Positions 3,976 through 25,246 of a DNA stretch of 64,000 bases are shown piece by piece. The notes beneath the pieces are model-generated. The model ran no database searches and was not told where the DNA came from. It saw nothing but the letters and a program-made list of their open reading frames with translations. Each line of letters starts with the position of its first letter. The stretch's first letter is position 1. This DNA is from Desulfovibrio sp. (lineage in GTDB: Bacteria > Desulfobacterota > Desulfovibrionia > Desulfovibrionales > Desulfovibrionaceae): assembly GCF_034006445.1 (NCBI RefSeq), contig NZ_JAVESS010000010.1, forward strand, positions 28,933 to 92,932. The letters are read 5' to 3'. The position numbers and the translations under genes were made by a program.

Positions 3976-4014
3976 AACCTTCAGGCGTGTAACAGGCGAA
4001 TAACGTTGTATCTT

Positions 4015-4048
4015 CTTCAGCCGCTGCCCCTGTGGGCAGCGGCTGAAG
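4015..4048 (+). terminator. Stem-loop after malic enzyme gene
   Basis: Perfect 15-bp stem CTTCAGCCGCTGCCC-ctgt-GGGCAGCGGCTGAAG; weak U-tract. Confidence 0.55.
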
Positions 4049-4562
4049 CCGTCTTTGCCCTTGGCGCAGTTCACTGTTTATCCCCATATCTCCTCGGTTT
4101 CTGGGAGGCCCCGCCATCAGCCCCGCCATATTTTGTCGGGGCTGATCTGTTTTCGGGAACAGGGCGTTTTTGCTGGCAAGCCTGCCGTGGCGGCGACTGG
4201 TTGCGGTTGCCCGGTTTCGGCGGCCCGGTTGTGGCCGGGCATGCCTTTGCGCACGGGCATATCACGGGCGCGCTGGGAAGACTGCAGGAGATCCTGCTGG
4301 TACTATTACGCTCCCTGTGAAAACTCTGGTATCTCACGTCTGTGTACTGATAAATGCATAGTTAATGACTATGTTTTTATCGGAAATTTCTTATGTTCAC
4401 GTTTTTAAAAATACCGATACCAAGTTGCGCATTGTACTCTCCATCTGTACTCAAGTACTACCAAAAATTTTATTTGATTGGAGATGTTCTGTTGAAGCGC
4501 ACTGTACACTGCCTGGGTGCTTACAGTGTTATATTTCTGTTATCTCAATAACCGGAGGGCAT

Positions 4563-6623: not shown

Positions 6624-6775
6624 GGAAACGCTGATTTATTCCATTTGGCGGACTTGCTTCACTTTTTTGAAACAATCGAGGACGGAAGAGTCCACTCCTG
6701 CTTCAAAAAAGATCGCGCCTTGCCAAAGGAAATACCAGCGCGTTTCCAGGAGGCTCTTTAATCAGTGCTCCCCTA
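6621..6775. mobile_element. MITE-like element, family A copy 2 (155 bp)
   Basis: TAGGGAAACGCTGATT...AATCAGTGCTCCCCTA; begins in the TAG stop codon of the receptor gene; last TA shared with the next element. Confidence 0.8.
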
Positions 6776-6901
6776 GAGCATTTAACACTTGAAATGCTCG
6801 CGTACGGCAGGCAAAAGCCCGCCTGCTCGCATTTCGTGGCAAGGATTTTTCAGAAAAATCCTTGCAGAGCATTTAACTCATTTCATTCGTAAACTGCTCT
6901 A
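6774..6901. mobile_element. MITE/ERIC-like element, family B copy 1 (128 bp)
   Basis: TAGAGCA...TGCTCTA termini; near-identical to 24388-24515 (inverted) and 32945-33071. Confidence 0.88.
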
Positions 6902-6941
6902 GCGCTGATTCAGATATGCTTGACGTACTGTGAACACTGCC

Positions 6942-6976
6942 GCTTCAGCCGTTGCCATGCGTGTAACGGCTGAAGC
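6942..6976 (+). other. Intergenic stem-loop between receptor and ABC genes
   Basis: GCTTCAGCCGTT-N11-AACGGCTGAAGC; shares the CTTCAGCCG stem with the hairpin at 4015. Confidence 0.5.
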
Positions 6977-7106
6977 GCATCCTGCGTTCATAGAGGTAGC
7001 CGTACCGTGAGCACAACGTCGACGTAACATCGGCGCAACGTAGGGCGCAAAGCGCCGGTCTGGCTCTCCCTTTGCCAGAAGACGGCCGGAGCGACATGCC
7101 GAAAGG

Positions 7107-8171
7107 ATGGTGACTGTGCAGATTCGATTACTTGCCTCAGGGCTGCTTGTGCTGTTTGTCATGCTTGCCATGCCTGTCATGCCGTGTCGCGCCGGAGCGG
7201 CGGCGAGTCCTGCTGCCGTGACTGAGAGTGGGCCAGAGGCAAAGGATGCGCGCAGCGTCTATTGCGCCACCCCGCCTTCCACATTCACGCTGTACGCCTT
7301 TGCGCCGGAACTGCTGGCTGGCTGGAATACGCCCCTCAGGGATTATGAAAAAAAATTCATTCCCGCCCGGTACCACAATCTGCCGGTGCTGGGCGGCTGG
7401 TACGGCCAGGGCTTCATACCCGACAGGGAAATGCTGCTGGCCAGCGGCATCAAAAAAGCCTTTTACCTGTCCATGGGCCCGCACGACCGCCTGCCCATTG
7501 AAAAGACCCTGACCAGCCTTGGCATGCAGGTAACCAGCGTGCCCGGCGCGAGCATGGCGGACATGGCCACCTGTTTTCTGGATATGGGCCGGGCCTTTGG
7601 CCGTGAGGAGCGTGGGGCGGCATTGGCCACCTATGCAGAGCAGACGCTTGAAAAAGTGTCCCACGCCATGCGGGATCTGCCCAGTGAAAAATGGACAAGG
7701 GTTTATGTGGCCCTTGAGGCTGACGGTCTGGCCTCCGTCTGCCGCAAGTCACAGCGAGCAGAGGTATTTGCCGCCGCCGGGGCCCTGAGCGTGCACGACT
7801 GTCCGCCCGGAACGGAAGAATCCTTTTTGCGCGTGACCTTTGAGCAACTGATGGCCTATGACCCTGAAGTCATACTGGTTTTCCATCCGGCGCTCATGCG
7901 CCGCATCCCCACAGACCCCAAATGGTCGTCCCTGCCCGCCGTGCGCCAGGGCAAGGTGTACTTTATCCCGCGCGGGCCGTTCAGCTGGCTGGAGCGTCCC
8001 GCCACCTACATGCGCCTGCTGGGCGTGCAGTGGCTGGCAAACAAACTGCACCCCGACCTCTACCCCGTGGACATCGCGGCGGAGAGCAGACATTTTATGA
8101 AACTTTTTTTCAACCTGGAGCTTGATGACGCCCAGGTGAACGATTTTTTTGATCCCTATGGCACATTCTAA
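7107..8171 (+). CDS. Periplasmic substrate-binding protein (Fe-siderophore/B12/metal class III)
   Basis: Signal peptide; LPVLGGW and C-terminal VYFIPRGPFSWLERP...LGVQWLANKLHPDLY pattern; precedes FecCD permease. Confidence 0.85.
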   Translation: MVTVQIRLLASGLLVLFVMLAMPVMPCRAGAAASPAAVTESGPEAKDARSVYCATPPSTFTLYAFAPELLAGWNTPLRDYEKKFIPARYHNLPVLGGWYGQGFIPDREMLLASGIKKAFYLSMGPHDRLPIEKTLTSLGMQVTSVPGASMADMATCFLDMGRAFGREERGAALATYAEQTLEKVSHAMRDLPSEKWTRVYVALEADGLASVCRKSQRAEVFAAAGALSVHDCPPGTEESFLRVTFEQLMAYDPEVILVFHPALMRRIPTDPKWSSLPAVRQGKVYFIPRGPFSWLERPATYMRLLGVQWLANKLHPDLYPVDIAAESRHFMKLFFNLELDDAQVNDFFDPYGTF

Positions 8172-9165
8172 AAAAACCCTGCTCATACTGAGCCTGCTTT
8201 TGCTGGCGGCCATCGTGTTTGCCCTGCCCATGGGCCGTTACCCGTTGGCCCTGGGCGATCTGTGCCGCAGCCTGCTGGACGCGTGGGCAGGGCGGCCCCT
8301 GAATGAAGAGCAGAGCCGCCAGCTTTTTTTGTTCTTTGACCTGCGGCTGCCGCGCATTGGCGCGGCCCTGGTGGTGGGAGCCTGTCTTTCCGCTTCGGGT
8401 ACGGTGTACCAGAACATGTTTCAAAATCCCCTCGTATCGCCGGGCATACTGGGCGTGCAGCACGGAGCCGCTTTTGGCGCGGCCATTGGTATAGTGTTTT
8501 TTTCTTCCTGGCCGCTCACGCAGGCTTTTTCCTTTACTGGCGGCGCGCTGGGCGTGGGGCTTTCGCTCTTTTTCGCCTGGCTTTATCCCAGAGCGCGCTT
8601 TCTGGCCCTTGTGGTGGGCGGCCTTGTGAGCAGTTCGTTTTTTGTGGCCCTGACGTCGCTTGTGCAGTATGTGGCCGACCCCAACCGCCAGCTGCCGGAA
8701 CTTGTGTACTGGCTTATGGGCACGCTGGCCCGCACGGAACCGCGCCAACTGGCCTGGAGCACCCCCCTCATGCTGGCCGGGCTGGCCTATATCTGCCTCA
8801 ATGGCAAGGCGGTGAACGCGCTTGCCATGGGGGATGACGAGGCCCGCGCCCTGGGCGTGCAGAGTATGGGCATGAAGCTGCGCCTTATCGGCGCGGCCAC
8901 CCTGATCTGTTCGCTTACCGTGGTGCTGGCCGGGGTCATCAACTGGGTGGGGCTGGTCATCCCGCATGTCATGCGTTTCATAATCGGGCCGGACAACAGG
9001 GTGGGCCTCACAGCGTCAGCCCTTGGCGGAGCGCTTTTTGTGCTGCTCACAGACACGCTCATACGTTCTGTCTGGACAGTGGAACTGCCGCTGGGCATTG
9101 CCACATCGCTCATCAGCATGCCGCTTTTTGCCTTCAGCCTGTGGTACGACTGGAAACGGCGATGA
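8158..9165 (+). CDS. FecCD/BtuC-family ABC permease
   Basis: LRLPRI, FQNPLVSPGILGV, G.INWVGLVIPH, ELPLG motifs; multiple TM helices. Confidence 0.92.
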   Translation: MAHSKKTLLILSLLLLAAIVFALPMGRYPLALGDLCRSLLDAWAGRPLNEEQSRQLFLFFDLRLPRIGAALVVGACLSASGTVYQNMFQNPLVSPGILGVQHGAAFGAAIGIVFFSSWPLTQAFSFTGGALGVGLSLFFAWLYPRARFLALVVGGLVSSSFFVALTSLVQYVADPNRQLPELVYWLMGTLARTEPRQLAWSTPLMLAGLAYICLNGKAVNALAMGDDEARALGVQSMGMKLRLIGAATLICSLTVVLAGVINWVGLVIPHVMRFIIGPDNRVGLTASALGGALFVLLTDTLIRSVWTVELPLGIATSLISMPLFAFSLWYDWKRR

Positions 9166-9920
9166 TAGAAATTCATAATCTTACCGTCAGCTATCACAGC
9201 GCCCCTCCGGTGCTGAAAAATATTTCCCTGCGCGTGGACAGGGGCGAGGTGGTCAATGTGCTTGGCCCCAACGGCTGCGGCAAAACGACGCTGCTCCGGG
9301 CGCTTCTTGGTCTTTTGCCCTCTCCGCCCGGCAGTATCTTGCTGGACGGCCGCCCTCTGGAAACAATCCCGCGGCGCAGTCTGGCCCGCAGCCTTGCCTA
9401 TGTGCCGCAACAGCATACCGGGGTTTTTGGCTTTCAGGTGCTGGATGTGGTGCTCATGGGCCGCACCGTGCGCAGTCCCTGGTTGCGTTTTTCCGCCGAG
9501 GATCGGCAACAGGCCATGGCCGCGCTGGAAAAAGTGCGCCTGACCCATCTGGCGCACAGGTCGTATCTGGAGCTTTCTGGCGGGCAACGCCAGATGGTGC
9601 TGATTGCGCGCGCCCTGGCTCAGGACTGCGGGGCACTTGTGATGGATGAACCTGTCACGGGACTGGATTATGGCAATCAGTTTCATCTGCTTGACCTTAT
9701 TGGCGAACTGGCCGCATCTGGGCCAGCCATCTTGCTCACCACGCACCATCCGGAGCAGGCCGTCTACCTTGGCGGGCGGGCCGTGCTGTTGAAAGACGGC
9801 ATCCTGGTGGCGGATGGCGCTGTGGCATCGACCATTACCGAAGATCAGGTGCGCAAGTTGTATGAACTGCCGCCCAGGGCTGAAGCGTGGATGCGCCTGA
9901 CCGGGACCAGTGCGCCATGA
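9162..9920 (+). CDS. ABC transporter ATP-binding protein (FepC/BtuD-like)
   Basis: Walker A GPNGCGKT, LSGGQRQ, Walker B LVMDEP; ATGA overlap with permease stop. Confidence 0.93.
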   Translation: MIEIHNLTVSYHSAPPVLKNISLRVDRGEVVNVLGPNGCGKTTLLRALLGLLPSPPGSILLDGRPLETIPRRSLARSLAYVPQQHTGVFGFQVLDVVLMGRTVRSPWLRFSAEDRQQAMAALEKVRLTHLAHRSYLELSGGQRQMVLIARALAQDCGALVMDEPVTGLDYGNQFHLLDLIGELAASGPAILLTTHHPEQAVYLGGRAVLLKDGILVADGAVASTITEDQVRKLYELPPRAEAWMRLTGTSAP

Positions 9921-13748: not shown

Positions 13749-14576
13749 CTATACGCTCCAGAACATGAGGGCGGCCTTTGCCTGCACACTTTCCCGCACC
13801 CGACCGTCACTGCTCAGTTCCGCCAGTTTACGGGTCAGGCCCTCCTTTTGCTGCGGGCTAAGCGGCCCCATGCTTTCAAAGAAGCGCAGATACATGAGTT
13901 CCGCCTCTTCAAGGCTGCAGTCGCTTTCCCACGCGCGGTCCATATATTCCACTTCGGGGTAGTATCCCATCAGCCAGAGCAGATTGAAGGCGCAATAAAA
14001 ACTGCGGCTTACGCGCTCCTTGTGCGCGTCCCAGTCCACCAGCGACTTGAGTTGGTCGCGCACCGAGTGGCAGGTATCAACCTGGCTGATGATGCAGCAG
14101 GAGCCGCAAGAGGCCGCGATCATTTTTTCCAGGGCAGCCTTGTCGTTGACTGCCGGAGTTCTGGAGGCAAGAACCAGGTGAAACCGGTTGCGCCATCCCA
14201 GGGCGTCCAGATCGGCAATGCTCCAGTCCAGCACCTGAAAATGCGCCTTGTCGCACCCGTCCCGCGCGGCGTTTTCCCTGGCGAGTTCTATCATGGCGGG
14301 GGCAATGTCAAAGCCCTCCACGCGACCCACCAGAGGAGCCATCTCAAGCGCGTGGCTGCCAGGGCCGCAGCCGATATCAAGTACAGACGCCGACGGGTCA
14401 AGCCCCGCCTTGCGGGCTATGTGCTCCACAAGCAGACGCCTGTGTTCGCGTGAGGCATCACCCCGGATGTGGTCGTTGAACGAAGGCGCGCGTTTGTTCC
14501 AAAAATCCGCCATGCCGGTTCGCTCTGGCTGGTAGTCCACCCAAAGCGCTTCAAAAGTACGCATGGTTAGTGGCAT
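13749..14576 (-). CDS. Class I SAM-dependent methyltransferase 1
   Basis: Motif I VLDIGCGPG, DIAPAMI; N-terminal FWNKRAPSF; overlaps DUF364 stop. Confidence 0.88.
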   Translation of the reverse strand: MPLTMRTFEALWVDYQPERTGMADFWNKRAPSFNDHIRGDASREHRRLLVEHIARKAGLDPSASVLDIGCGPGSHALEMAPLVGRVEGFDIAPAMIELARENAARDGCDKAHFQVLDWSIADLDALGWRNRFHLVLASRTPAVNDKAALEKMIAASCGSCCIISQVDTCHSVRDQLKSLVDWDAHKERVSRSFYCAFNLLWLMGYYPEVEYMDRAWESDCSLEEAELMYLRFFESMGPLSPQQKEGLTRKLAELSSDGRVRESVQAKAALMFWSV

Positions 14577-15340
14577 GATTCAGCCACCATATTTACCTTT
14601 TGCCCACCGTGCCCAAAAATGGCTTCACAGTTGTCGTTCTTGAGGGATGCGCTCATCTTTTCAGCGTCAACCACAACCAGACCCGAAAGGGAGCGCACCC
14701 CGTGCGAGAAAAGCAGAGGGTTCATGGGCGTGCTGGGGCCCACCATGTATACCTTGGCGTTGGCGCTCAGTTCCAGCAGCCTGGTGATGGTCTTATTGAT
14801 AAAGGTGGTGCCGGTAATAAAAACAAGATCTTGCTGTGGCAAAATATATTCCGCCGCAGTGTCCGGCAAATCCCCGGGTTGGGGCTGACGCTCAAGTATT
14901 GAAAGTTCACAGTGCTGGCGCAGCCGCCCAAGACCGGGAAAATGCCCGACAACGGTTACTTTTTTGCCCTTTGCCTCTGAAAGAAAAAAGTCAAAGGCAT
15001 CCCCGTGGCGATTGTCCAGCGCCGTACGCAGGGGGCTTGGCTCCACAAGAGCCAGGGTATTGTTGGCGGCGTTCAGGGCGGCAAGGCCGATGGAGGCGGC
15101 GTTGAAATCCCAGGACTTTATTTTTTCCGCTATCCGGCGCAGAGGCTGGCCCACCATGTCATGACAGGACTGGGCAGAGTCGGACGCACCCGGAGCAGGG
15201 GGGAAATACTGCGCCATCCCTATGCCGCCGCTGTCTGTCTCCACCATGAGCCAGTGTTTGCCGCAGGTGAAGGATTTGACCAGAGCAGTGTCGGGCACAG
15301 AGTCAAGCAGTGCGTCATACAAAAACCAGCGGTTACTCAT
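14567..15340 (-). CDS. DUF364/DUF4213 Rossmann-like (putative heavy-metal chelation) protein
   Basis: ASIGLAALNA, KKVTVVGHFP, LPQQDLVFITGTTFINKT, MVGPSTP; start MSNRW overlaps FmdE stop. Confidence 0.82.
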   Translation of the reverse strand: MSNRWFLYDALLDSVPDTALVKSFTCGKHWLMVETDSGGIGMAQYFPPAPGASDSAQSCHDMVGQPLRRIAEKIKSWDFNAASIGLAALNAANNTLALVEPSPLRTALDNRHGDAFDFFLSEAKGKKVTVVGHFPGLGRLRQHCELSILERQPQPGDLPDTAAEYILPQQDLVFITGTTFINKTITRLLELSANAKVYMVGPSTPMNPLLFSHGVRSLSGLVVVDAEKMSASLKNDNCEAIFGHGGQKVNMVAESCH

Positions 15341-15908
15341 GGCAGACCTCAAGTGGGCGATAGTAAGCGCCATCGGCGCAGGCGCGGCAGTATGTCTTGC
15401 CGTCCCGCAAGACTTCCTTGCAGTCCAGCACATCCTCACCACAGGCGGCGCAGGTGCATACGCGAACTGGCGGGCCGGGCAGTTCGCCTTCCGGCATGTC
15501 TATGTGTACTTCCTGCCATGCAAAGATGTCATCATCAGTGTACTTTTCCCAAAAGGCTATCTGCTCCTGTTTGGGAACATCGTGGGGAGGACGGTCGGAT
15601 GTGGTCACGTGTACCCTGACAGCCCGTCCGCTCTTAAGGTCAAGAAAAGACATGGCGGTTTTGCCATATCCATAGACCTTGACCCGCCTGCGGCCCAGAG
15701 TCACGCCTGTGACCACATGGGTGGCATCGGCCACGCATCTGTCAGTTTCCAGAAAAATAACAAGATCCCGCAGGTTGTCTTCGGGTTTGAGATCAAGCAG
15801 GCGCAAGGCCATAAGGGACATGCGGATGCCCAAGACCTGCCCGCTACAAATGTGACCGTGGTACTTTTCAGCCTTTTCAAGGAATGGTGTGATGTTTGTC
15901 ATGGCCAT
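15333..15908 (-). CDS. FmdE-family protein 1 with C-terminal C4 zinc finger
   Basis: YHGHICSGQVLG, ETDRCVADA, CAACGE...YCRAC. Confidence 0.88.
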   Translation of the reverse strand: MAMTNITPFLEKAEKYHGHICSGQVLGIRMSLMALRLLDLKPEDNLRDLVIFLETDRCVADATHVVTGVTLGRRRVKVYGYGKTAMSFLDLKSGRAVRVHVTTSDRPPHDVPKQEQIAFWEKYTDDDIFAWQEVHIDMPEGELPGPPVRVCTCAACGEDVLDCKEVLRDGKTYCRACADGAYYRPLEVCHE

Positions 15909-16047
15909 ACTGTAGTTGTGGTGTATGATATAGTTGCATAAACCTGACCTGTGACACGGAGCCTGTCAATGTATTATGGGGGGTAAGTGTGTACTCAGTA
16001 TTGTTATAACATTGCTTACGACATGTCACGTCTTTGTTAAATTTTAA

Positions 16048-16076
16048 TAGTCACGCTTTTTTAGTAACCGAGACTA
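16048..16076. promoter_or_regulatory. Candidate transcription-factor operator (imperfect palindrome)
   Basis: TAGTCACG-N13-CGAGACTA (7/8 symmetric) in AT-rich DNA upstream of fmdE1. Confidence 0.45.
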
Positions 16077-16363: not shown

Positions 16364-16422
16364 AAGAGTTTTCGGGGGGGAGTGTGGGGGAGGAGCTCTT
16401 TTGCAAAAGGCCCCCCCCGCAA
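16364..16422. repeat. REP-like GC-rich hairpin, family E copy 1
   Basis: AAGAGTTTT..GGGGG.GTGTGGGGGAGGAG..CTTTTGCAAAAGG..CCCC; second copy at 31351-31416. Confidence 0.7.
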
Positions 16423-16461
16423 GGCATTTCAGGCTATCTGCGGCATGACGCCATGGAGCGC

Positions 16462-17349
16462 TTACCGCAAACTGAAGATGAAGGGCAGTTCCACCAGGGT
16501 ATTCACTGGCTGACCCTTGAGTTTGCCGGGGACAAAACGCATGTTTTTTGCCGCCTTGAGCGCCGCTTCCTCGAAATACCCGTCCGGCGTCGCGTTGACA
16601 ACTTCACAGTTGCGGGGCTGGCCGGAGGCGTCCACCACAAGGCGCACCTTGACGGAACCCTGAATGTTCATGCGTTGGGCCCTGGCGGGGTATTCCGGTT
16701 CAACGCGCCGGGTAATGCTGGGGCGTTGATCCAGTACATCGCAGGCGTAGGCGTCAATCCCGCCCACGGTGCGCGGCTGCGGCCCTGCTGGTGCGGTTGC
16801 CCCTGCCTGAAGTGCCGGGCCAGCCGTGGTGCCTGTGGCGGCCGAGGCAACCGTAGTGGTCGGGACGGCAGGAGAAGGCTGTGCTGCCGGAAGGGAAGGC
16901 TGCTCAGGCGTGGCTGCTTCCTTGGGTATGGCTGTTTCGCTCTTTTTGGGGCTGATCTTTTTTGCTTCCGGCTTCGGTGGTACAGGTTTGGCGGGGCGGG
17001 CATCCGGCTTTGGCTGCGCCAGTTCCGGCGGAGGCGGCGGAGACGGCGCGGGCTTTTCCGCCACAGCGGGCGCGGCAAGCAAGGTGGGATCTGCAGACAC
17101 GGCAGGCGGCGATCCAGCGGCCGGAGCAAACTCGGCAAGCGTCACACGGTAGACCCTTACCGCTGTGGGTGGCGCTTCCCTGCCCAGCAGCAGCAAACCG
17201 CCCAGCAGCAGCGCGTGCATACCCAGGGAAAGGGCCAGGGCCACGCCACGTATGCCAGACAGTGTCGTCATGGGCGTCTTTCCTGGTATTTCTGCGTTGA
17301 ACTTCGTCCTGTATTCCGGACGAGTGCCATCAGAGTACACTCCCTGCAT
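16462..17349 (-). CDS. tonB: TonB energy transducer 2 (start uncertain: 17349 or 17271)
   Basis: TM SLGMHALL, Pro-rich linker, YPARAQRMNIQGSVKVRLVVDASG...FEEAALKAA. Confidence 0.87.
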   Translation of the reverse strand: MQGVYSDGTRPEYRTKFNAEIPGKTPMTTLSGIRGVALALSLGMHALLLGGLLLLGREAPPTAVRVYRVTLAEFAPAAGSPPAVSADPTLLAAPAVAEKPAPSPPPPPELAQPKPDARPAKPVPPKPEAKKISPKKSETAIPKEAATPEQPSLPAAQPSPAVPTTTVASAATGTTAGPALQAGATAPAGPQPRTVGGIDAYACDVLDQRPSITRRVEPEYPARAQRMNIQGSVKVRLVVDASGQPRNCEVVNATPDGYFEEAALKAAKNMRFVPGKLKGQPVNTLVELPFIFSLR

Positions 17350-17365
17350 AAAAAGCTCGTTTTCC

Positions 17366-18115
17366 TTAAAAAAGCACATGGGGCTGGCCGTCAATGGTCT
17401 GCAAACGGACTGCCATGCCGTATGCGCGGCCAAGGTCATGCTCGCTCAGTCCCGATGTCGGCCCCTGATATGCCGGGCGTCCCTGGTGCAGAAGCATGGC
17501 GTGCTGCGTGTAGCGCAGCGCATAGCTCAGGTGGTGCAGCACGATGCACACACAAATGCGGCGAGTTGTACTGATATCTGTAATTGTTTCAAGCAGTTCA
17601 ACCTGATTGCGTATGTCCAGGTGGTTGACGGGCTCATCCAGCAGAAGGACGGGAGCTTCCTGCGCAAGAGCGCGGGCTATAAGCACTTTTTGCAGCTCGC
17701 CGCCGCTGAGGCTGGTGACGCACTGTTTTTCCAGATGGGTGAGATGCAGTTCTTCAAGGGCGGCCTGTGTTTTCAGGCGATCTTCCTTGCCGGGCAGCCA
17801 GCCCATGTGCGCTCTGCGCCCCAAAAGCACGGCATCAAAAACGCTGCTCGGCACGGGCTGGGCAGTCTGCGACAGGTAGGCCACGGCTTGCGCGCGCTGG
17901 CGGCGGTTCAGGCCGAAAAGGCCGCTTCCTCCGTACAGCACGCGCCCGGATGTGGGGCGTTCAAGCCCGGCCACAATTCTGGCAAGGGTGCTTTTGCCCG
18001 CGCCGTTGGGGCCGATGAGGGCCATGCAGCGTCCCGGTTCAAGGCAAAAGGATATGCCCTCAAGGATGGTTTTGCCGGAGCGTGCCACAAGAGAGATGTT
18101 TTCGGCCTCAAGCAT
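17366..18115 (-). CDS. ABC transporter ATP-binding protein
   Basis: GPNGAGKS, LSGGELQ, LLLDEP; start overlaps permease stop. Confidence 0.92.
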   Translation of the reverse strand: MLEAENISLVARSGKTILEGISFCLEPGRCMALIGPNGAGKSTLARIVAGLERPTSGRVLYGGSGLFGLNRRQRAQAVAYLSQTAQPVPSSVFDAVLLGRRAHMGWLPGKEDRLKTQAALEELHLTHLEKQCVTSLSGGELQKVLIARALAQEAPVLLLDEPVNHLDIRNQVELLETITDISTTRRICVCIVLHHLSYALRYTQHAMLLHQGRPAYQGPTSGLSEHDLGRAYGMAVRLQTIDGQPHVLF

Positions 18116-19340
18116 GCGCCCTGGCCCCCCTGAAAAGAATGTACAGAAAAACCGGAACCCCGGTGAAGGCGCAGACAATGCCTACAGGCAACAGGGCGGG
18201 GTAGATGATGGACTGGGCCACGAGGTCGGCTGCCAGCAAAAAACACGCGCCAAACAGGGCGGAACCGCCTAGCAGAAAAAAATGTCCGGCGTGGGGAAAG
18301 ATGAGCCGCACCATGTGGGGCGCCACCAGGCCCACAAAGCCGATGACCCCGTAAAAGGCGGTGGCAAAGGCCGCCATAAGCGAGGCCATGAGCAGGGTAG
18401 TGCAGCGCAGCCGCAGCACTGACACGCCCAGAGCCGCCGCCTGGGCGTCGCCCCAGCGCAGGGTGTCATAGTCCAGGTTGCGGCGCAGGGAAAAGACGAG
18501 GCCCGTCAGCAGCACGAGGCCCACCAGCGCGACCTCGCGCCAGCTTCCCCTGCCCAGATCGCCGAAGCTCCAGAAAACGGTGGCGGCCACCTGGCTGTCA
18601 GAGGCGAAAAACTGCAAGGACATGGTGGCGGCCCCAAAGAGGGTGGACAGGGCCACCCCTGCGAGAATAAGCCCCTGCGGCCCCATGCCCCGCACCATGC
18701 TGAAGGCCAGTATGATCAGGGCCGCGCTGAGCGAACCGGCCAGCGCGCCCATGGCCACGGTGCTCAATCCCGCCAGTCCGCCAGCCATGGGCAGAATAAC
18801 CATGGAAAAGCTGGCTCCAAAGGCGGCCCCCTGTGAAAGCCCCAGGGTAAAGGACGAGGCCAGCGGGTTGTTGAGCACATTTTGCAGCATGGTTCCGGTG
18901 AGAGCCAGGGACGCGCCGACAGCCAGGGCGGCGCAGACCTTGGGCAAGCGCAGATGGAGGACAAAATAACGTAAGGATTCGTCGCCGGAAGCGCTGAACA
19001 GGGCGGCCCAGATGTCGGACCACGAGCGTGAAAGCGCACCCATCTTTAGGCCCGCCAGCCCCAGCAGCACGGTCACAACCAGCAGTGCCGCCATTGAGAA
19101 GACGCGCGCGCGGGGGCCATCCCACGGTTGGGAGCAGCAGTCCCCTTTTGGGGCCACAAAAAGCGGGGAGTGCTGGCTGCCGCAATAAGCCTGGCTGCCG
19201 CAGTGGGCGTGCGGGCTGTCGCAGTGGGCCTGGCTGCCGCAGTGGGCATGCGGGCTGTCGCAGTGGGCCTGGCTGCCGCAGTGGGCTTGGGGGTGCTGGG
19301 CCGTGTCACTCTGGCCGCCAGTGGGCACCTTACCGGGCAT
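18108..19340 (-). CDS. FecCD-family ABC permease with His/Cys-repeat N-terminal extension
   Basis: LRLPKV, NNPLAS, GVIGFVGLVAPH, LPVG; N-terminus HCGSQAHCDSPHA repeats; ATG overlaps the upstream stop (ATGCCCGGTAA). Confidence 0.9.
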   Translation of the reverse strand: MPGKVPTGGQSDTAQHPQAHCGSQAHCDSPHAHCGSQAHCDSPHAHCGSQAYCGSQHSPLFVAPKGDCCSQPWDGPRARVFSMAALLVVTVLLGLAGLKMGALSRSWSDIWAALFSASGDESLRYFVLHLRLPKVCAALAVGASLALTGTMLQNVLNNPLASSFTLGLSQGAAFGASFSMVILPMAGGLAGLSTVAMGALAGSLSAALIILAFSMVRGMGPQGLILAGVALSTLFGAATMSLQFFASDSQVAATVFWSFGDLGRGSWREVALVGLVLLTGLVFSLRRNLDYDTLRWGDAQAAALGVSVLRLRCTTLLMASLMAAFATAFYGVIGFVGLVAPHMVRLIFPHAGHFFLLGGSALFGACFLLAADLVAQSIIYPALLPVGIVCAFTGVPVFLYILFRGARAHA

Positions 19341-20409
19341 AGTCCAGCCCCTGTGCGGTCAGTTGCAGTCTGCCCGGCCTGCCGGTGACGCGCACCATGT
19401 CTTCATACAGGGGGAAGCCGTTGAAAAGAATGAATATTTCATCGGCCAGCGCCTCGGGATCAAGGCTGGAATATCTTTGGGGGTAGGCTGCCTTGGCCAT
19501 GAAAAAGGCATTGATATACAGCACTTCAGGATTGTTGAAATAGGCCGTGTGGGGCAGCAGCAGCCAGGTGTTGCCGCTTGTGAGGGCTGTGAGGCGTTCA
19601 TAATACCGCCGTTCGCTGTCCAGCGCCTGGCGTATGAGCGGCAGCCCGTTGCCGTCTATGAAGATCAGGGGCGGGTCGGCCGCCAGCAGAAATTCCCTGT
19701 TGATGAAAAAATGTCCTGATTGGCCCATACCATCGACCATGTTTTTTACGCCCGAAAGCGTGAAGGGCAGAAAGTCGGCGGCCGTGCTTTTGATGTCCTG
19801 GTTGCCCTTGTAGGAAAGCCCGCCCATGTAGGCCTGCACCATCGCTTGTTCAGCCGGGGCGGGCAGGCGTTTGGCCAGATCGCCAATGCCCGTGACCAGT
19901 TCCTGAGCGCGTTCTTCCCTGCCCAGAATGTTTCCGGCAAGGAGGATGGACTCAAAAAAAATCTCGCTGTCAAAGGCGGGCAGCCCCTGACTCAGGGCAA
20001 TGACCGGCACGCGCAGCTTGCGCTGGATCTGGTCAGGTTCTGACGGATCAGTGGAGATGATAAAGACCACATCCGGGTTGAGGGCCACAATACGTTCATA
20101 GTTGGGCACGCGCACGGCCCCGGCCTTGCCGACCACGGGCAGGTCTTTGAAGCGCTCGCGGTTGCAGAGCACATAGGGCTTGGCAATGACGGCCTTGTCG
20201 ATGTCCTCCACGCCCACGATCCTGTCCTGCGCGCCAAGGTAGGTCACAAAGGCCATGCTGCTGCCAAGGGCGATAACGCGCCGCACGTTTTGCGGCTCCG
20301 GCACTTCCACAAGGCGGCCCATGGCGTCGGTGACGGGGCGCGCCCCGGCAGGAGCCGCGCCCGACAGCAGCGCCAGAGCCAGCAGGAGCAGACTCAGCGC
20401 TTTTGCCAT
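19330..20409 (-). CDS. Periplasmic substrate-binding protein (class III)
   Basis: Signal peptide (APAGA-RP), VTDAMGRLVEVP, PNYERIVALNPDVVF, KAAYPQRY. Confidence 0.88.
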   Translation of the reverse strand: MAKALSLLLLALALLSGAAPAGARPVTDAMGRLVEVPEPQNVRRVIALGSSMAFVTYLGAQDRIVGVEDIDKAVIAKPYVLCNRERFKDLPVVGKAGAVRVPNYERIVALNPDVVFIISTDPSEPDQIQRKLRVPVIALSQGLPAFDSEIFFESILLAGNILGREERAQELVTGIGDLAKRLPAPAEQAMVQAYMGGLSYKGNQDIKSTAADFLPFTLSGVKNMVDGMGQSGHFFINREFLLAADPPLIFIDGNGLPLIRQALDSERRYYERLTALTSGNTWLLLPHTAYFNNPEVLYINAFFMAKAAYPQRYSSLDPEALADEIFILFNGFPLYEDMVRVTGRPGRLQLTAQGLDYAR

Positions 20410-21161
20410 ATGATCATCTCGATGACATAGTCCGTGCGTTCCACATACTGGCCTTGTTCATCCTTGAATGTCTCCACGTGCGCTTCCACAAAGCGCGGGT
20501 CGGGTTCCGCGCCGTATTCACGCAGGGTGGTGAGGCAGACGTCCACAAGATCCTCACGGCTTTTTGCCACCACCCACTGGCCCGTGACCGGGATGGCTGT
20601 GTAGGGCACGCCATTGCGGTCAAGCCAGGATCGCATATCCTGGGCATTGTTGAAAATTTTTGGGGCAATGCCGTAGTGCTCGTGCAGGCCCTGCATGACG
20701 TTGGAGAGCATGCGGTCTGAAAAGCCCATAAAAACCACCTTGTCGGCGGCATACTGCATGAGCTTTTCTCTACTTGCGTCGCTTTCAATGGCTGGCGTCA
20801 TTGAGGCAAAAACAACGTCAAAGCGTTCATGGGCAGAAAAGTCATCCCAGCCGGAGCATACGGTGGTAATGTTGGTGATGTGCATGGCCGCGGCGTCTTC
20901 GCGCAGCAGGCGCAGCATCTCGTCGGACACGTCCACCGCCGTGACGTGCTCGCCCATGCGCGCCAGACGCAGGGTGTACATGCCGCTGCCACAGCCCACA
21001 TCCAGAATGCGTTTATTGGTGAAATCCACTCCGTTTTCCATGGCGTGACGAAGCATCTTGGCCTCGTAGGTATGATCGCCTTCCTCAAAGCGCGGGAAGG
21101 TGCGCGAGCGGGCATTCCAGAATTCACGCTGCTTTTGCTGTTTTTCGTCTACAGTTCCCAT
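20394..21161 (-). CDS. Class I SAM-dependent methyltransferase 2
   Basis: ILDVGCGSG, AVDVSDEML; N-terminal FWNARSRTF; overlaps both neighbours. Confidence 0.88.
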   Translation of the reverse strand: MGTVDEKQQKQREFWNARSRTFPRFEEGDHTYEAKMLRHAMENGVDFTNKRILDVGCGSGMYTLRLARMGEHVTAVDVSDEMLRLLREDAAAMHITNITTVCSGWDDFSAHERFDVVFASMTPAIESDASREKLMQYAADKVVFMGFSDRMLSNVMQGLHEHYGIAPKIFNNAQDMRSWLDRNGVPYTAIPVTGQWVVAKSREDLVDVCLTTLREYGAEPDPRFVEAHVETFKDEQGQYVERTDYVIEMIIWQKR

Positions 21162-23359
21162 TTGATGCTGACCCCCGCGTTGATTCCCAGTGCCGGGTAT
21201 CCCCAGGCTTCTTCATACTGGGTGTTGGTTATGTTGTCCGCATAGGCTTCAAGAGTAAGGTGTTCGTCAACCCTGTAGCTGAGGCTTGCGCCAAGGGTGG
21301 CGTAGTCGTGCAGCGTGCCCTTACGCAACTGGGCCGTATTGACGTAGTAGTTGCGTTGCCCCACATAGGTCAGCACGGCGTCAAGGGTGAACTGTTCGTT
21401 GATTTTCCAGGTGGTTCCAAGGGTTCCCTTCCAGTCGGGGATGTATTCCAGCCTGTCCAGCACGCCGTTGGGGTCGGCAGGGTCATTGGTTTTTTTGCTG
21501 TCCTGCCTGGTGATGGCGGCGTTGACCGTCACAGTGTCCAGCAAATCATAGCTGCCGCTCAGGGTGGCCCCGTATATTTCGGCGTCGATATTGTAGGCGG
21601 CCCAGGCCTGGTAGCTCGGCGACCGGTTAACGTAGACAGGTTTGTGAACGATGTAGTCCTGAACGGTGTAGTAAAAGCCGGAAAGCTTGAGAAAACCCTT
21701 GCCCCCGAAGCTGTATTTATAGGCAGCGTCAATGCCGCGCGCGGTTTCGGGCTTTATGTCCTTGCCCACCAGATAGGGCACGTTGACCGTGGCGTCCCGC
21801 GATGATGCCTGCGAGTTCCAGTACAGTTCCGGGATGGTGGGGGTTCTGTAATTCTGGTACAGCGCAAGGGAGGCGGACTGGTGTTCGGTAAAGTCATACG
21901 TGAGCATGATCTTTGGGGAAAGCTGCGAGTTTAAAAGATGTTTGTCCTGACCTTCAGGGCTGTAGCTGAAACTGTCGTAGCGCAGGCCCATATCAAGACG
22001 CAGGCTGTCGGTGATGGAGAACTTGTCGGCCAGAAAGGCACCCGTGACCGTGGCGGGCCTGCCTGCTTCTGCGGAGTCCATCTTGCCCGTCCACTTGTTG
22101 GCCCCGGCCTTGTTGTAGTTTTCGTCCACATATTCAACGGTGATGGGGCCGGGGGTCAGCCTTTTGTATTCAACACCCGTCATGAGCTCGTGGCCATGAA
22201 CGGTGACGCCCGTTTTGAACTTGAAGCCGTAGGTATTGTCCACAATGACGTTACGGTCCAGTACGAGGTCGCCGTTTCTTGTTTGGGAGGGATTAAAGTC
22301 TCTGGGATTCGTTGTTTTTAACTGCATGCGGGCGTCAACGTCCGCATAGTTTTTTTCACGGCGGCTTTCGCTGTTCTTGAAACCGGAGACTTCAAAGTAG
22401 GCGGTTTCAAGAAACTCCTGCCGATAGGTGAAATCCATAAGGTGGCGGTACTTGGTCCAGTGCGCGCCGTCGCCGATAACCGTCATGGAAGGCGTGGGCG
22501 AACCACCGGCAAAGCTTTCGCCGCTGGCTGTTGGGTAGTTGGAGTCAATGGCGGAACTGAAGCCGGGCACATCCGGATTGGCGTCGCTGGCGGGGTTGCC
22601 GTCGTTTCTGTTGCTGCGGATAAGCCCGCGCCGGGTCTGGCTGTAGTTGTACCCCAGGGTGAGTTCTGCCCGCCAGGGCAGGTCGATGTAGAGCTTGGGG
22701 TTGAAGTGGAAGGAGTCGTAGTCGTTGTTGCGCAAAAAGGGGTCGGCGTGCTGATGGCTCAGGCCCACGCTGAGGCCGATGGCGTTGAACTTCTGGGCAT
22801 AGCTGCCGCGCACGTTGTGAAAATCGTAAAAGTCCTTCCAGCCGCCCATGGTGGCGTAAGCGCTGAAATGGGGCTGCTCCGTGGGCCGACGGGTATAGGC
22901 GTTGATGACCCCGCCAAGGGCGCTGTTGCCGTATTCAACCGAACTGCCGCCCTTGATGACCTCAATCTTCTCGATATTGTCCAGCGGGATGGTGCCAAAG
23001 TCGATATAGTTGCCGCCGGACATGCCCGTGGAACTGATATCACGCCCATCAAGGTTGAGCATGATTCTTTTGGATTCCATGCCCCGTATGGAAATGATGT
23101 CGCTGCTGTCTCCCATGGCGGCCTTGCGCTTGAAGGATATTTCAGGGTCGCGCACCAGGTAGTCGGCCACGTTGTTGCTGCGGTTTTTTTCCACAACAAT
23201 GGCGGTTGTTCTGTCCAGATTGTCTTCTTCCATACGTCCGGTAACCTTTATGGGATCCAGAACAAAGACATCCTGCATGAGGTTGTCGGAACCGGCCGCG
23301 ATCCCCGCTCGGGGAAAGGCCATAACTGCCAGCAAGCACAGACTGAGAACAAGTTTCAT
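21149..23359 (-). CDS. TonB-dependent outer-membrane receptor 2
   Basis: Start moved to MKLVLSL (GGAG 7 nt upstream); plug ISIRG, IEKIEVIKGGSSVEYGNSALGGVIN; C-terminal DNITN...GVSIKWEL. Confidence 0.9.
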   Translation of the reverse strand: MKLVLSLCLLAVMAFPRAGIAAGSDNLMQDVFVLDPIKVTGRMEEDNLDRTTAIVVEKNRSNNVADYLVRDPEISFKRKAAMGDSSDIISIRGMESKRIMLNLDGRDISSTGMSGGNYIDFGTIPLDNIEKIEVIKGGSSVEYGNSALGGVINAYTRRPTEQPHFSAYATMGGWKDFYDFHNVRGSYAQKFNAIGLSVGLSHQHADPFLRNNDYDSFHFNPKLYIDLPWRAELTLGYNYSQTRRGLIRSNRNDGNPASDANPDVPGFSSAIDSNYPTASGESFAGGSPTPSMTVIGDGAHWTKYRHLMDFTYRQEFLETAYFEVSGFKNSESRREKNYADVDARMQLKTTNPRDFNPSQTRNGDLVLDRNVIVDNTYGFKFKTGVTVHGHELMTGVEYKRLTPGPITVEYVDENYNKAGANKWTGKMDSAEAGRPATVTGAFLADKFSITDSLRLDMGLRYDSFSYSPEGQDKHLLNSQLSPKIMLTYDFTEHQSASLALYQNYRTPTIPELYWNSQASSRDATVNVPYLVGKDIKPETARGIDAAYKYSFGGKGFLKLSGFYYTVQDYIVHKPVYVNRSPSYQAWAAYNIDAEIYGATLSGSYDLLDTVTVNAAITRQDSKKTNDPADPNGVLDRLEYIPDWKGTLGTTWKINEQFTLDAVLTYVGQRNYYVNTAQLRKGTLHDYATLGASLSYRVDEHLTLEAYADNITNTQYEEAWGYPALGINAGVSIKWEL

Positions 23360-23483
23360 GCGTACTCCGGAGCGGCGCCTGTGCTGAAGGTTGGTGTCAG
23401 TCCTGCGCATGTGATGTTTTTTAAAAAAGTGCTACTGTCTGATGGAAAAAAGGCTGCTCGCGGCAGCCTTTTGCCTTTTTTTG

Positions 23484-24020
23484 TTACCAGCGCCGGTGGT
23501 ATGTATGCTGGCAGTCCAGGCAGACCTTTTTGCCGTCCTCAAGGCGCAGCATGGGTTCCGCCACGCCCTCGCCGCAGACTTCGCAGGCTATGGTGGAAAA
23601 AATGCGGGGAGCTTCAGGGATTGCATAGTCCGGGGCCGCCGCGCTGAATAGTTTTTCAAGCGGCATGTCCATAAGGGTTTGCTGCCATTCATCCCTGCTG
23701 GCCTGTTCGCTTTTATTGACCTGCAGGCACAGGCGCAAGGACGCGCCGCTTTCGCGGTCAAAAAAGGAATAGGCGTGTTTGCCGCGCGGGCGCGCCACAA
23801 GATTGCCCTTGCCAGCCGAACAGCCGAGCAGGCTTTGAATGGCGTCCACACCGCAGGCGTCGTTTTCTGTAACGCAAACAAGCTTGCCGTAGGCGGCCTG
23901 CCCAAGCACGGGGTGGGCCATCACAGCCTCCACGGCGCGCAAACCGATGACAAGGCCGGGGCAAAGATGCCCGTGAAAGGTTACGGCCCTGTTGAGCCTG
24001 TCCGAAGCTGATTGGTCCAT
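23484..24020 (-). CDS. FmdE-family protein 2 with C-terminal C4 zinc finger
   Basis: FHGHLCPGLVIG, ENDACGVDA, CSAGKGNL, CEVCGE...VCLDC; start moved to MDQSA. Confidence 0.88.
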   Translation of the reverse strand: MDQSASDRLNRAVTFHGHLCPGLVIGLRAVEAVMAHPVLGQAAYGKLVCVTENDACGVDAIQSLLGCSAGKGNLVARPRGKHAYSFFDRESGASLRLCLQVNKSEQASRDEWQQTLMDMPLEKLFSAAAPDYAIPEAPRIFSTIACEVCGEGVAEPMLRLEDGKKVCLDCQHTYHRRW

Positions 24021-24187
24021 GATGCCCCCCTGCATGCAGCCTGACTCTGCATGCCAGTTTCCGCATAGCTGTTTGCTTTTGCATGGCAGTTTGGCCACGC
24101 CTTCCCGTGCGCGGCCTACCCCGGTCATCCCTGCCCAGCGGCATTGTCGCCGTGTGGATACGACGGTACGGCTTTGGGCAATTCATA

Positions 24188-24214
24188 GTAACACAATTTG
24201 AATTATCGTAACAC
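24188..24214 (-). promoter_or_regulatory. NikR-type operator GTGTTAC-N13-GTGTTAC
   Basis: Minus strand gtgttacgataattcaaattgtgttac; half-site and spacing match the deltaproteobacterial NikR site as I recall it; overlaps the -10 box. Confidence 0.65.
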
Positions 24215-24233
24215 GTAAGGCTAAGCTTGGCAA
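24205..24233 (-). promoter_or_regulatory. Sigma70 promoter of the fmdE2-receptor 2 operon
   Basis: TTGCCA-N17-TACGAT on the minus strand. Confidence 0.7.
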
Positions 24234-24387
24234 GAAGTCTGCGCTTGTTTGCCATGCACGTTGGCGACGCACGCAGGCAGCAGGATTTGGCAGTGGCAGG
24301 GCAAGGGCCGTGTGTGTTGCAACGCTTTGTGGGGAGGGCGGGTTGTTCTGTCAGTAAAGAGCAGGGCGGGCAGCGGTGGACGTGCTG

Positions 24388-24515
24388 TAGAGCAGTTTAC
24401 GAATGAAATGAGTTAAATGCTCTGCAAGGATTTTTCTAAAAAATCCTTGCCACGAAATGCGAGCAGGCGGGCTTTTGCCTGCCGTACGCGAGCATTTCAA
24501 GTGTTAAATGCTCTA
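24388..24515. mobile_element. MITE/ERIC-like element, family B copy 2 (inverted)
   Basis: Reverse complement of 6774-6901; TAGAGCA...TGCTCTA. Confidence 0.88.
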
Positions 24516-24546
24516 GAATGGCAGGTGCGGCCTTGCGCAAAAGAAT

Positions 24547-24576
24547 GAAAAAAGCCCGGAGGGGGCCTCCGGGCTT
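24547..24576 (-). terminator. Rho-independent terminator of the TPR operon
   Basis: AAGCCCGGAGG-ggg-CCTCCGGGCTT stem followed by T6 on the minus strand. Confidence 0.8.
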
Positions 24577-24619
24577 GTGATTTGCGCGAAAAGAAGAATC
24601 AGCGTTTCCAACTGGCTCT

Positions 24620-25246
24620 TTAGCCGGCGTTTTCCTTGAGCTCTTGCATGAATCCTTCGGGCACTTCAAAGCCGAGCTTTTGGGCTGTTTCCGCCGCTTC
24701 TTTGGCCTTGGCATGCTCGCCCTGGTCAAAATAGGCCAGCGCAAGGTTGTTCCAGGCAGGGGCAAAGGCGGGTTCTTTTTTGATGATGGCCAGGCACTGT
24801 TCTTCGCAGGCCTTGTAGTTGCCCTTCATGAAATAGGCCGTGGCCAGGGCGTTTTGCGCCTGCACAAAGTTGGGGTCCCACTTGAGGGCCTTGTTCAGGG
24901 CGGTGATGGCCTTGTCGGGTTCGCCGCGCTGCAGGTGTACAAAGGCGATATTGCCCCACGGCACGGGGAACTTGGCGCGGCAGTTGGCGGCTTCTTCATT
25001 GTAGCGCAGGCAGCCGTCAAGGTCGCCGCGTTCAAGGCAGATGCCGCCAAGCTGCACGTAGGCCTCGGCCAGGTGCGGCGAATTGCGCACGGCCTCCAGA
25101 AAGGATTCTTCGGCGGCCACAAAGTCGCGCTTGCTCAAAAGGGCCAGGCCCAGATTATAGTGATGGTTGGCGCATTGCTCATTTCCGGCAATTTCCGCCT
25201 TGAGGTCTGCAATATACTCGTCCAGATCGTCGTAGCGAGCTTTCAT
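24620..25246 (-). CDS. Tetratricopeptide-repeat protein
   Basis: Repeated TPR patterns (HYNLGLAL, AYVQLGGI, AQNALATAY, AWNNLALAY). Confidence 0.88.
   Translation of the reverse strand: MKARYDDLDEYIADLKAEIAGNEQCANHHYNLGLALLSKRDFVAAEESFLEAVRNSPHLAEAYVQLGGICLERGDLDGCLRYNEEAANCRAKFPVPWGNIAFVHLQRGEPDKAITALNKALKWDPNFVQAQNALATAYFMKGNYKACEEQCLAIIKKEPAFAPAWNNLALAYFDQGEHAKAKEAAETAQKLGFEVPEGFMQELKENAG

Follow-up and report, generated by a model that had tools for sequence, protein, structure and literature searches.

Which regulator governs fmdE2, a gene that stands in front of a TonB-dependent receptor and its ATP-binding cassette (ABC) importer in a Desulfovibrio species, and which metal would this system serve? 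The question is raised by the fmdE2 promoter, which carries two copies of the heptamer GTGTTAC and lies in a 64,000-nucleotide stretch of a Desulfovibrio sp. genome (contig C27, positions 28933-92932, forward strand; hereafter the window, whose own numbering is used unless another contig or a locus is named). The host genome comprises 3.5 Mb in 44 contigs with a G+C content of 58%. Judged by this locus, its nearest named relatives are Desulfovibrio sp. MES5, whose receptor is 96% identical, and D. falkowii. The gene calls were taken from lists of open reading frames without annotation. The explanation that we regard, taken as a whole, as fairly probable is that the GTGTTAC pair is an operator of the nickel-responsive repressor NikR acting on fmdE2, that the transporter genes downstream are probably co-regulated and that together they provide a route of nickel import.

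The GTGTTAC pair at the fmdE2 promoter

The promoter and the heptamer pair are contained in the minus-strand sequence cTTGCCAagcttagccttacGTGTTACgataattcaaattGTGTTACtatgaatt. As claimed in the first-pass annotation of this DNA, the −35 hexamer TTGCCA (24228-24233) is separated by 17 nt from the −10 hexamer TACGAT (24205-24210). This was evident by direct reading, and a consensus scan found TTGCCA-N17-TACGAT (9/12 matches, with the TG of an extended −10 in front of the −10 hexamer) as the sole sigma-70-like promoter within 23200-24700. The perfect direct repeat that the annotation had placed over the −10 hexamer was also found on reading the sequence. Its first half-site (24214-24208) overlaps the −10 hexamer, the 13-nt A/T-rich spacer GATAATTCAAATT follows (24195-24207), and the second half-site (24194-24188) covers the predicted transcription start, so that the whole element GTGTTAC-N13-GTGTTAC extends over 27 bp (24214-24188). 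A poorly conserved 5' leader of about 170-180 nt (24021-24187, minus strand) separates it from fmdE2.

The direct pair is real and not a product of chance, since it is unique in the genome. Only two copies of GTGTTAC are present in the window, both at the fmdE2 promoter. The genome contains 103 copies, of which no other two are within 60 bp of each other, and same-strand pairs at exactly this offset are expected about 0.0015 times per genome (103 × 103/7.0e6).

Orthologs of the receptor are confined to one Desulfovibrio subclade. We aligned the fmdE2 promoters of eight loci; three more orthologs found with FmdE2 (G188, G131 and G048) increased the number of orthologous operons to 11. The invariant columns of the eight-locus alignment cluster in the −35 region (CTTG-C), in half-site 1 (7/7 positions) and in half-site 2 (xTxxTAC), while the flanks diverge and the leader differs between subclades. 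The −35 hexamer reads TTGCC(A/T) in seven of the eight loci and TTGTCA in L016; the −10 hexamer occurs as TACGAT, TACGTT or TACCTT. Half-site 2 varies: three loci have GTGTTAC, four ATACTAC and one GTACTAC. In all 11 operons the spacer is A/T-rich and 13 nt long. The boxes of G188 and G131 are identical to that of the window, and G048 (FmdE 70% identical, same operon) has GTGCTAC-N13-ATAATAC. The most divergent close ortholog, L016, has unrelated flanks, yet it retains a perfect GTGTTAC-N13-GTGTTAC. When the comparison was extended to 200 genomes of the order, the link between FmdE and a NikR-type box was seen only in close orthologs. A single distant match (G034, GTATTAC-N13-GTGTTCC) lies in an unrelated context and was left out of the argument.

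Such conservation may also be expected of a promoter as such. According to this explanation, GTGTTACGAT is an extended −10 element, the A/T stretch serves for melting and initial transcription, chance or a small local duplication gave rise to the second GTGTTAC, and no repressor is involved. The sequence TG-N-TACGAT does fit an extended −10, and half-site 2 is far less conserved than half-site 1. However, a second exact copy of so rare a heptamer at the NikR spacing is hardly expected at the frequency given above, and L016 has kept the perfect pair between differing flanks. Moreover, the 13-nt spacing and the xTxxTAC motif downstream of the −10 hexamer are invariant, whereas promoter function needs neither. 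This main residual rival thus accounts for half-site 1 but not for the fixed spacing or the conservation of half-site 2, and we consider it unlikely.

NikR and NikR-type boxes at the nickel genes

The NikR signal of delta-proteobacteria is GTGTTAC-[N13/14]-GTAACAC, inverted in Geobacter, Desulfuromonas, D. vulgaris and D. desulfuricans G20, and everted (GTAACAC-N13-GTGTTAC) in D. psychrophila and at nikK of D. vulgaris (Rodionov et al. 2004, Genome Biol 5:R90; PMC545781). The Geobacter half-site and spacing from which the first-pass annotation had argued therefore agree with the published signal in the heptamer and in the 13 bp, but the published consensus is inverted and not direct. The operators predicted for nikMNQO, nikKMLQO and nikK in delta-proteobacteria share with the fmdE2 promoter the GTGTTAC half-site, the 13-bp spacing, the location at an uptake-operon promoter and the presence of a nikR ortholog in the genome. 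They differ from it in being inverted or everted (PMC545781), and in the genes that they control, which encode transporters of the energy-coupling factor (ECF) type NikMQO, whereas here FmdE and probably a TonB receptor/FecCD importer are concerned.

No nikR gene lies in the window, as had been stated before, but the genome possesses one on contig C26 (C26:15540-15956), next to folE2. It is full length (138 aa) and encodes both the RHH_1 and the NikR_C domain. Among the other genomes bearing the operon, nikR is present in six of seven, and in the genus in 26 of 29, the three misses being fragmentary metagenome-assembled genomes (MAGs).

Boxes related to the fmdE2 pair also precede the nickel-transporter genes of the same genome, where the first-pass annotation had proposed to look for them. 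A complete nikKMLQO operon is located on C41, and TTGCTAC-TTTTTATTTTTTT-GTGCTAC, a direct pair with N13 and a T-rich spacer, lies directly upstream of its nikK (nikK1). Upstream of a second nikK (DUF4198; nikK2), located on C8, lie GTGTTAC-N13-ATGCTAC and AAAACAC-N13-GTGTTAC. In nikK1 orthologs fetched from 30 congeners, an upstream box (T/G)TGCTA(C/T)-N13-GTG(C/T)TAC, mostly direct and again with an A/T-rich 13-nt spacer, was found in 27-28. Variants at the orthologous position are TTGACAC-N13-GTGYTAC, the everted GTAGCAC-N13-GTGTTAC and the inverted GTGTTAC-N13-GTAGCAC. Since the nikK1 boxes of the genus are mostly direct, with inverted and everted variants, they lack dyad symmetry for the most part, and the orientation of a half-site can flip. 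It is only this genus-level evidence from nikK1 that justifies the direct arrangement at fmdE2.

The nikK1 box (C41:346600-346640; L006 3601-3639) coincides with a probable promoter, TTGCTA-N18-TACATA, which is in line with the explanation by promoter architecture. On the other side, nikK1 boxes that have lost the −35-like TTG keep NikR-type half-sites (the everted and inverted variants mentioned above). The nikK1 ATG is situated about 7 nt past this −10 and lacks a visible Shine-Dalgarno sequence; the nikKMLQO mRNA may therefore be leaderless.

A weight matrix of 27 columns was trained only on nikK1 sites from other genomes and used to scan 7.0 million positions. It ranked the genome's own nikK1 box 1st (41.1 bits) and the fmdE2 site 9th (17.5 bits), and it also recovered both nikK2 sites, a second box in front of the receptor gene (box 2, see below) and the box of a paralogous receptor on C25. 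A model of degenerate half-sites gave three hits without a mismatch, namely nikK1, fmdE2 and one A/T-rich intergenic site.

A different regulator might be considered instead, for instance an AraC-type protein or a response regulator that recognises direct repeats spaced by two helical turns and responds to a signal such as iron, cobalt/corrinoid or molybdenum/tungsten. Such proteins typically use direct repeats, which NikR does not, the transporter components are of the generic Fe-siderophore/B12 type, the binding protein partially matches the molybdate/tungstate substrate-binding protein (SBP) MolA/HI_1472, and genome context ties FmdE and DUF364 to Mo/W/Fe transport (PMC2954201). On the other hand, no regulator gene adjoins the operon, and the heptamer and its spacing match the NikR signal exactly and are seen again at the nikK genes. 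The consensus boxes of the known Desulfovibrio regulators (PMC545781) were also compared at the fmdE2 promoter with 300 random genome segments. Fur, Zur, ModE and PerR reached at best 10/18, 8/14, 7/14 and 8/14, respectively, which is chance level, as 41%-99% of the random segments reach these values, whereas the NikR patterns scored above all 300 segments. A riboswitch in the leader of about 175 nt, including a cobalamin-controlled one of the BtuB/BtuFCD type, was rejected as well: Rfam gave no riboswitch in 23340-24300, cobalamin included, at the gathering threshold or at E ≤ 1, and the leader is unconserved. A sub-threshold match to isrK falls on the terminator-like hairpin behind fmdE2. 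Altogether, we consider control by another regulator very unlikely.

If the 27-bp element is the operator of the genome's NikR, a nickel-responsive repressor of the ribbon-helix-helix type, each of the two DNA-binding dimers of the NikR tetramer would occupy one half-site; the centres of these sites, at a distance of 20 bp, lie on the same face of the helix. Loaded with nickel, the protein would cover the fmdE2 promoter from about −16 to +11 and would occlude RNA polymerase, since half-site 1 overlaps the extended −10 and half-site 2 covers the start. The promoter would accordingly be off when nickel is sufficient and would fire when nickel is scarce. A direct arrangement may be tolerated since each half-site is a near-palindrome (GT-NNN-AC), so that a dimer of two-fold symmetry would distinguish its forward from its reverse orientation by the inner positions alone.

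Several observations weaken the case for NikR at fmdE2. The pair lacks dyad symmetry, matching the inverted or everted consensus at 11/14 positions only; the published operators are dyad-symmetric and we know of no experiment with NikR on a direct pair. Half-site 2 has degenerated in five of the eight aligned loci (ATACTAC in four, GTACTAC in one), and as GTGTTACGAT also reads as an extended −10 (TGnTACGAT), promoter function could account for part of the conservation of half-site 1. The nikK1 matrix is noisy, in that its A/T-rich spacer scores high wherever this 58% G+C genome is A/T-rich. The degenerate half-site model yielded 10 hits compared with 2-8 in locally shuffled genomes, and the comparison of the motif with nikR presence across the genus is uninformative, as there is no nikR-less control genome among the 29. 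Otherwise, the half-site, the spacing, the presence of nikR, the nik boxes of the same genome and the conservation all agree with a delta-proteobacterial NikR box, and control of the fmdE2 promoter by NikR appears reasonably probable.

A further triple half-site, GTACCAC-N14-GTAACAG-N13-GTGTTAC, was observed on C20 (C20:142615-142680; L002 6616-6680), flanked by repeat elements within the 550 nt that separate trpA from a DUF2325-feoB unit. It was considered as a NikR-regulated small RNA and rejected, since its central part is absent in 30 relatives and only the flanking repeats recur.

From fmdE2 to the transporter genes

All genes described in this section are encoded on the minus strand. The product of fmdE2 (23484-24020) consists of an FmdE domain and a C-terminal zinc ribbon of the DksA/TraR type, as shown by Pfam, the translation and an alignment to solved FmdE proteins, and contains the metal-site motif FHGHLCPG...DACG. 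In a crystal structure, the Zn/Ni site of FmdE had mixed occupancy (PMC2954224), and FmdE2 retains the FHGH-C...C (His/His/Cys/Cys) residues that held Zn/Ni in it. Just 3' of fmdE2, a palindrome scan detected a terminator-like hairpin (GGCTGC-loop-GCAGCC with a T run, 23448-23472). Among the orthologs the loop varies and the stem does not, as is characteristic of a functional terminator or attenuator.

Box 2 follows at 23409-23435 (27 nt), 47-73 nt upstream of the probable start of the receptor gene. It reads GTAGCAC-TTTTTTAAAAAAC-ATCACAT with an A/T-rich N13, has one good half-site and was found in all eight aligned orthologs. The nikK1 matrix gave it 14.4 bits, about 26th of the 7.0 million positions. 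The TonB-dependent receptor gene (21149-23362) encodes a plug and a barrel (Plug and TonB_dep_Rec in Pfam). Its listed ATG at 23410 falls inside box 2; for this reason translation probably begins at 23362, with the Met that precedes the signal peptide MKLVLSLCLLAV.

The receptor gene is followed by a gene for a class I methyltransferase dependent on S-adenosylmethionine (SAM) (20394-21161; Pfam, NCBIfam), which overlaps both the receptor gene and the gene for a periplasmic binding protein (19330-20409; Pfam Peripla_BP_2, cluster A/type II ABC). A FecCD-type permease (18108-19340; Pfam), an ABC ATPase (17366-18178; Pfam, NCBIfam) and a TonB-family protein (16462-17439; TonB_C in Pfam, NCBIfam) complete the unit, so that the receptor unit includes its own TonB. 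About six His/Cys-rich repeats (AHCGSQ/AHCDSPH ... GDCCSQPW) precede the first transmembrane helix of the permease (19169-19340). The tail is shorter in the ortholog L013 (HAHCGS...GHC...HCCS) and absent from the permeases of the C25 paralog and of receptor operon 1 of the window.

The first-pass annotation had treated fmdE2 to tonB as a single NikR-repressed operon. The operator on the fmdE2 promoter is supported, but a single operon is not established, owing to the hairpin and box 2. Because of the conserved hairpin and a separate, weaker box, control of the transporter genes from the fmdE2 promoter is not assured, and fmdE2 is the gene that the strong operator would most securely control. 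The receptor/ABC genes may be controlled by NikR through box 2, through read-through from the fmdE2 promoter, or not at all.

In the last case, NikR would bind but regulate only fmdE2, a cytoplasmic metal-binding zinc-ribbon protein, and the receptor/ABC unit would be separate and import something other than nickel. This would fit the hairpin with its invariant stem, which occurs behind fmdE2 in all orthologs, and the agreement of box 2 with the strict consensus at 10/14 positions. It would also fit a paralogous receptor operon on C25 (C25:41351-47230; L011 about 3351-9230), which comprises a receptor (66% identity), methyltransferase, SBP, FecCD permease and ATPase but no fmdE, and which has a very A/T-rich, Fur-box-like region farther upstream. 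In contrast, fmdE2 and the receptor operon are syntenic in 11/11 orthologous loci, box 2 is conserved with its A/T-rich N13 and high rank, the C25 operon has a similar box in the equivalent place, and the permease carries a His/Cys-rich tail. We consider regulation confined to fmdE2 quite unlikely. The box of the C25 paralog, GTAACAC-N13-TTGCGAC, is situated some 60 nt ahead of the receptor start and was ranked 5th by the nikK1 matrix; this operon may be under dual Ni/Fe control.

With NikR as the repressor of fmdE2, the receptor, methyltransferase, SBP, permease, ATPase and TonB genes would probably be co-regulated by read-through of the hairpin, by box 2 or by both, and their products would together constitute a TonB-dependent, FecCD-type import system for nickel, most likely taken up as a chelate.

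Another unit, consisting of fmdE, a DUF364/DUF4213 gene and a methyltransferase gene (13749-15908), was noticed beyond the gap after the TonB gene. No NikR-type pair was found in the window upstream of this unit or upstream of receptor operon 1. Two direct CGTGAC motifs, 25 nt apart in an A/T-rich stretch, lie upstream of the fmdE-DUF364-methyltransferase unit (16025-16055, minus strand). As GTGAC resembles a half-site of the Desulfovibrio ModE consensus (cGTGACCg), this unit may be under a metal regulator other than that of the fmdE2 operon. The first characterised DUF364 enzyme cyclises methylated SAM to azetidine carboxylate (PMC12930334). That the unit makes or processes a SAM-derived chelator is pure speculation, prompted by the relation of DUF364 chemistry to nicotianamine-type metallophore synthesis.

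A repeat family resembling miniature inverted-repeat transposable elements (GGGGAGGGACCCTTTTGTAAAAGGGTCTCC... and a second unit) was also noticed, with at least 25 matches in the host genome and at least 25 in G008, a related genome bearing the operon. Copies are located in several intergenic regions of the metal-uptake island, at about 16380-16440 and, just upstream of the fmdE2 promoter, at about 24320-24345, and also in L002 (6510-6600 and 6760-6840).

Nickel as the possible substrate and a comparison with known NikR systems

Some features of the system are compatible with nickel, namely the His/Cys-rich tail of the permease, the metal-site motif of FmdE and the gene content of G008 (= G062, MAG SRP294416_co3_779). 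This genome, 99% complete, has nikR and the fmdE-receptor-ABC operon with the fmdE2 box GTGTTAC-N13-GTACTAC, but is without any CbiM/NikM homolog.

Other results speak against nickel import or leave the ligand without a name. No specific equivalog was found for the receptor in NCBIfam, where, as in the PDB, only generic TonB-receptor matches were obtained. The closest solved relative of the binding protein is 2ETV, an uncharacterised Thermotoga SBP, and it partially matches the molybdate/tungstate SBP MolA/HI_1472; certain FmdE/FecCD-type systems of other organisms do import Mo/W. Naming the ligand by homology was consequently abandoned, as all NCBIfam and PDB relatives are generic or uncharacterised. 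The conserved hairpin stands between fmdE2 and the transporter genes, and by the strict consensus box 2 is a weak match (null fraction 0.027 for its 10/14 positions). NikM is present in six of the seven other operon-bearing genomes; an anticorrelation of the operon with NikM was therefore rejected, as G008 is the only one without NikM and there is no displacement pattern. Because the other six genomes have NikM, the importer would be a second route and not a replacement. Nickel import by this transporter is hence a plausible but tentative assignment, less secure than the control of fmdE2 by NikR. The two more far-reaching proposals taken jointly, that the NikR of this subclade reads half-sites free of orientation and that it runs a nickel-chelate import pathway of TonB, FecCD, FmdE and methyltransferase components, we regard as rather doubtful.

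In E. coli, the NikR operator at nikABCDE is GTATGA-N16-TCATAC. Like the proposed operator at fmdE2, it comprises two half-sites about two helical turns apart over a promoter, and serves the Ni-dependent repression of an importer; it differs in the half-site, in its strict dyad symmetry and in controlling a peptide-type ABC transporter, NikABCDE. The enterobacterial consensus is also quoted along with the delta-proteobacterial signal (PMC545781).

Closer in logic are the nickel receptors of Helicobacter. An ABC importer of the FecCD/CeuE type contributes to Ni/Co acquisition in H. mustelae. NikR-repressed, TonB-dependent nickel uptake is cited (PMC11247825) for FrpB4 and FecA3 of H. pylori and for NikH of H. 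mustelae with CeuE/FecDE. The shared logic is that Ni-NikR represses a TonB-dependent outer-membrane transporter, as would be the case here. The receptor studied here matched only generic TonB-receptor models, and the NikR box of Helicobacter is an A/T-rich palindrome of a different sequence. Furthermore, the Helicobacter systems are not known to include an FmdE, methyltransferase or His/Cys-tailed permease. The same paper (PMC11247825) lists predicted NikR-regulated TonB-dependent transporters from other lineages (Bll6948, Daro_3944 and Rgel01002199). Their assignment to nickel has the same basis as ours, the NikR site alone, although the types of box differ. NikR-repressed, TonB-dependent nickel uptake as such is therefore already known and is established in Helicobacter. 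Only the apparently orientation-free half-sites and the gene content with FmdE, methyltransferase and His/Cys tail are mildly new.

Sulfate reducers need nickel for [NiFe]-hydrogenases and CO dehydrogenase. To our knowledge, the sole nickel importer so far assigned in them is NikMQO of the ECF type, with NikK/L, and the NikR box on the fmdE2 operon nominates a second, outer-membrane-energised nickel route as a prediction. For the prediction of regulons, searches confined to inverted repeats would miss the mostly non-dyad NikR boxes of this genus. The operon also gives a testable function to the FmdE-like zinc-ribbon proteins, transport-operon methyltransferases and His/Cys-tailed permeases that recur beside the FecCD-type importers of anaerobes. 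If the more far-reaching proposals are true, the widespread association of FmdE with FecCD would acquire its first physiological role, in the handling of nickel (such as release from a chelate or chaperoning), and the neighbouring FmdE-DUF364-methyltransferase unit would be tied to a SAM-derived metallophore that it makes or processes.

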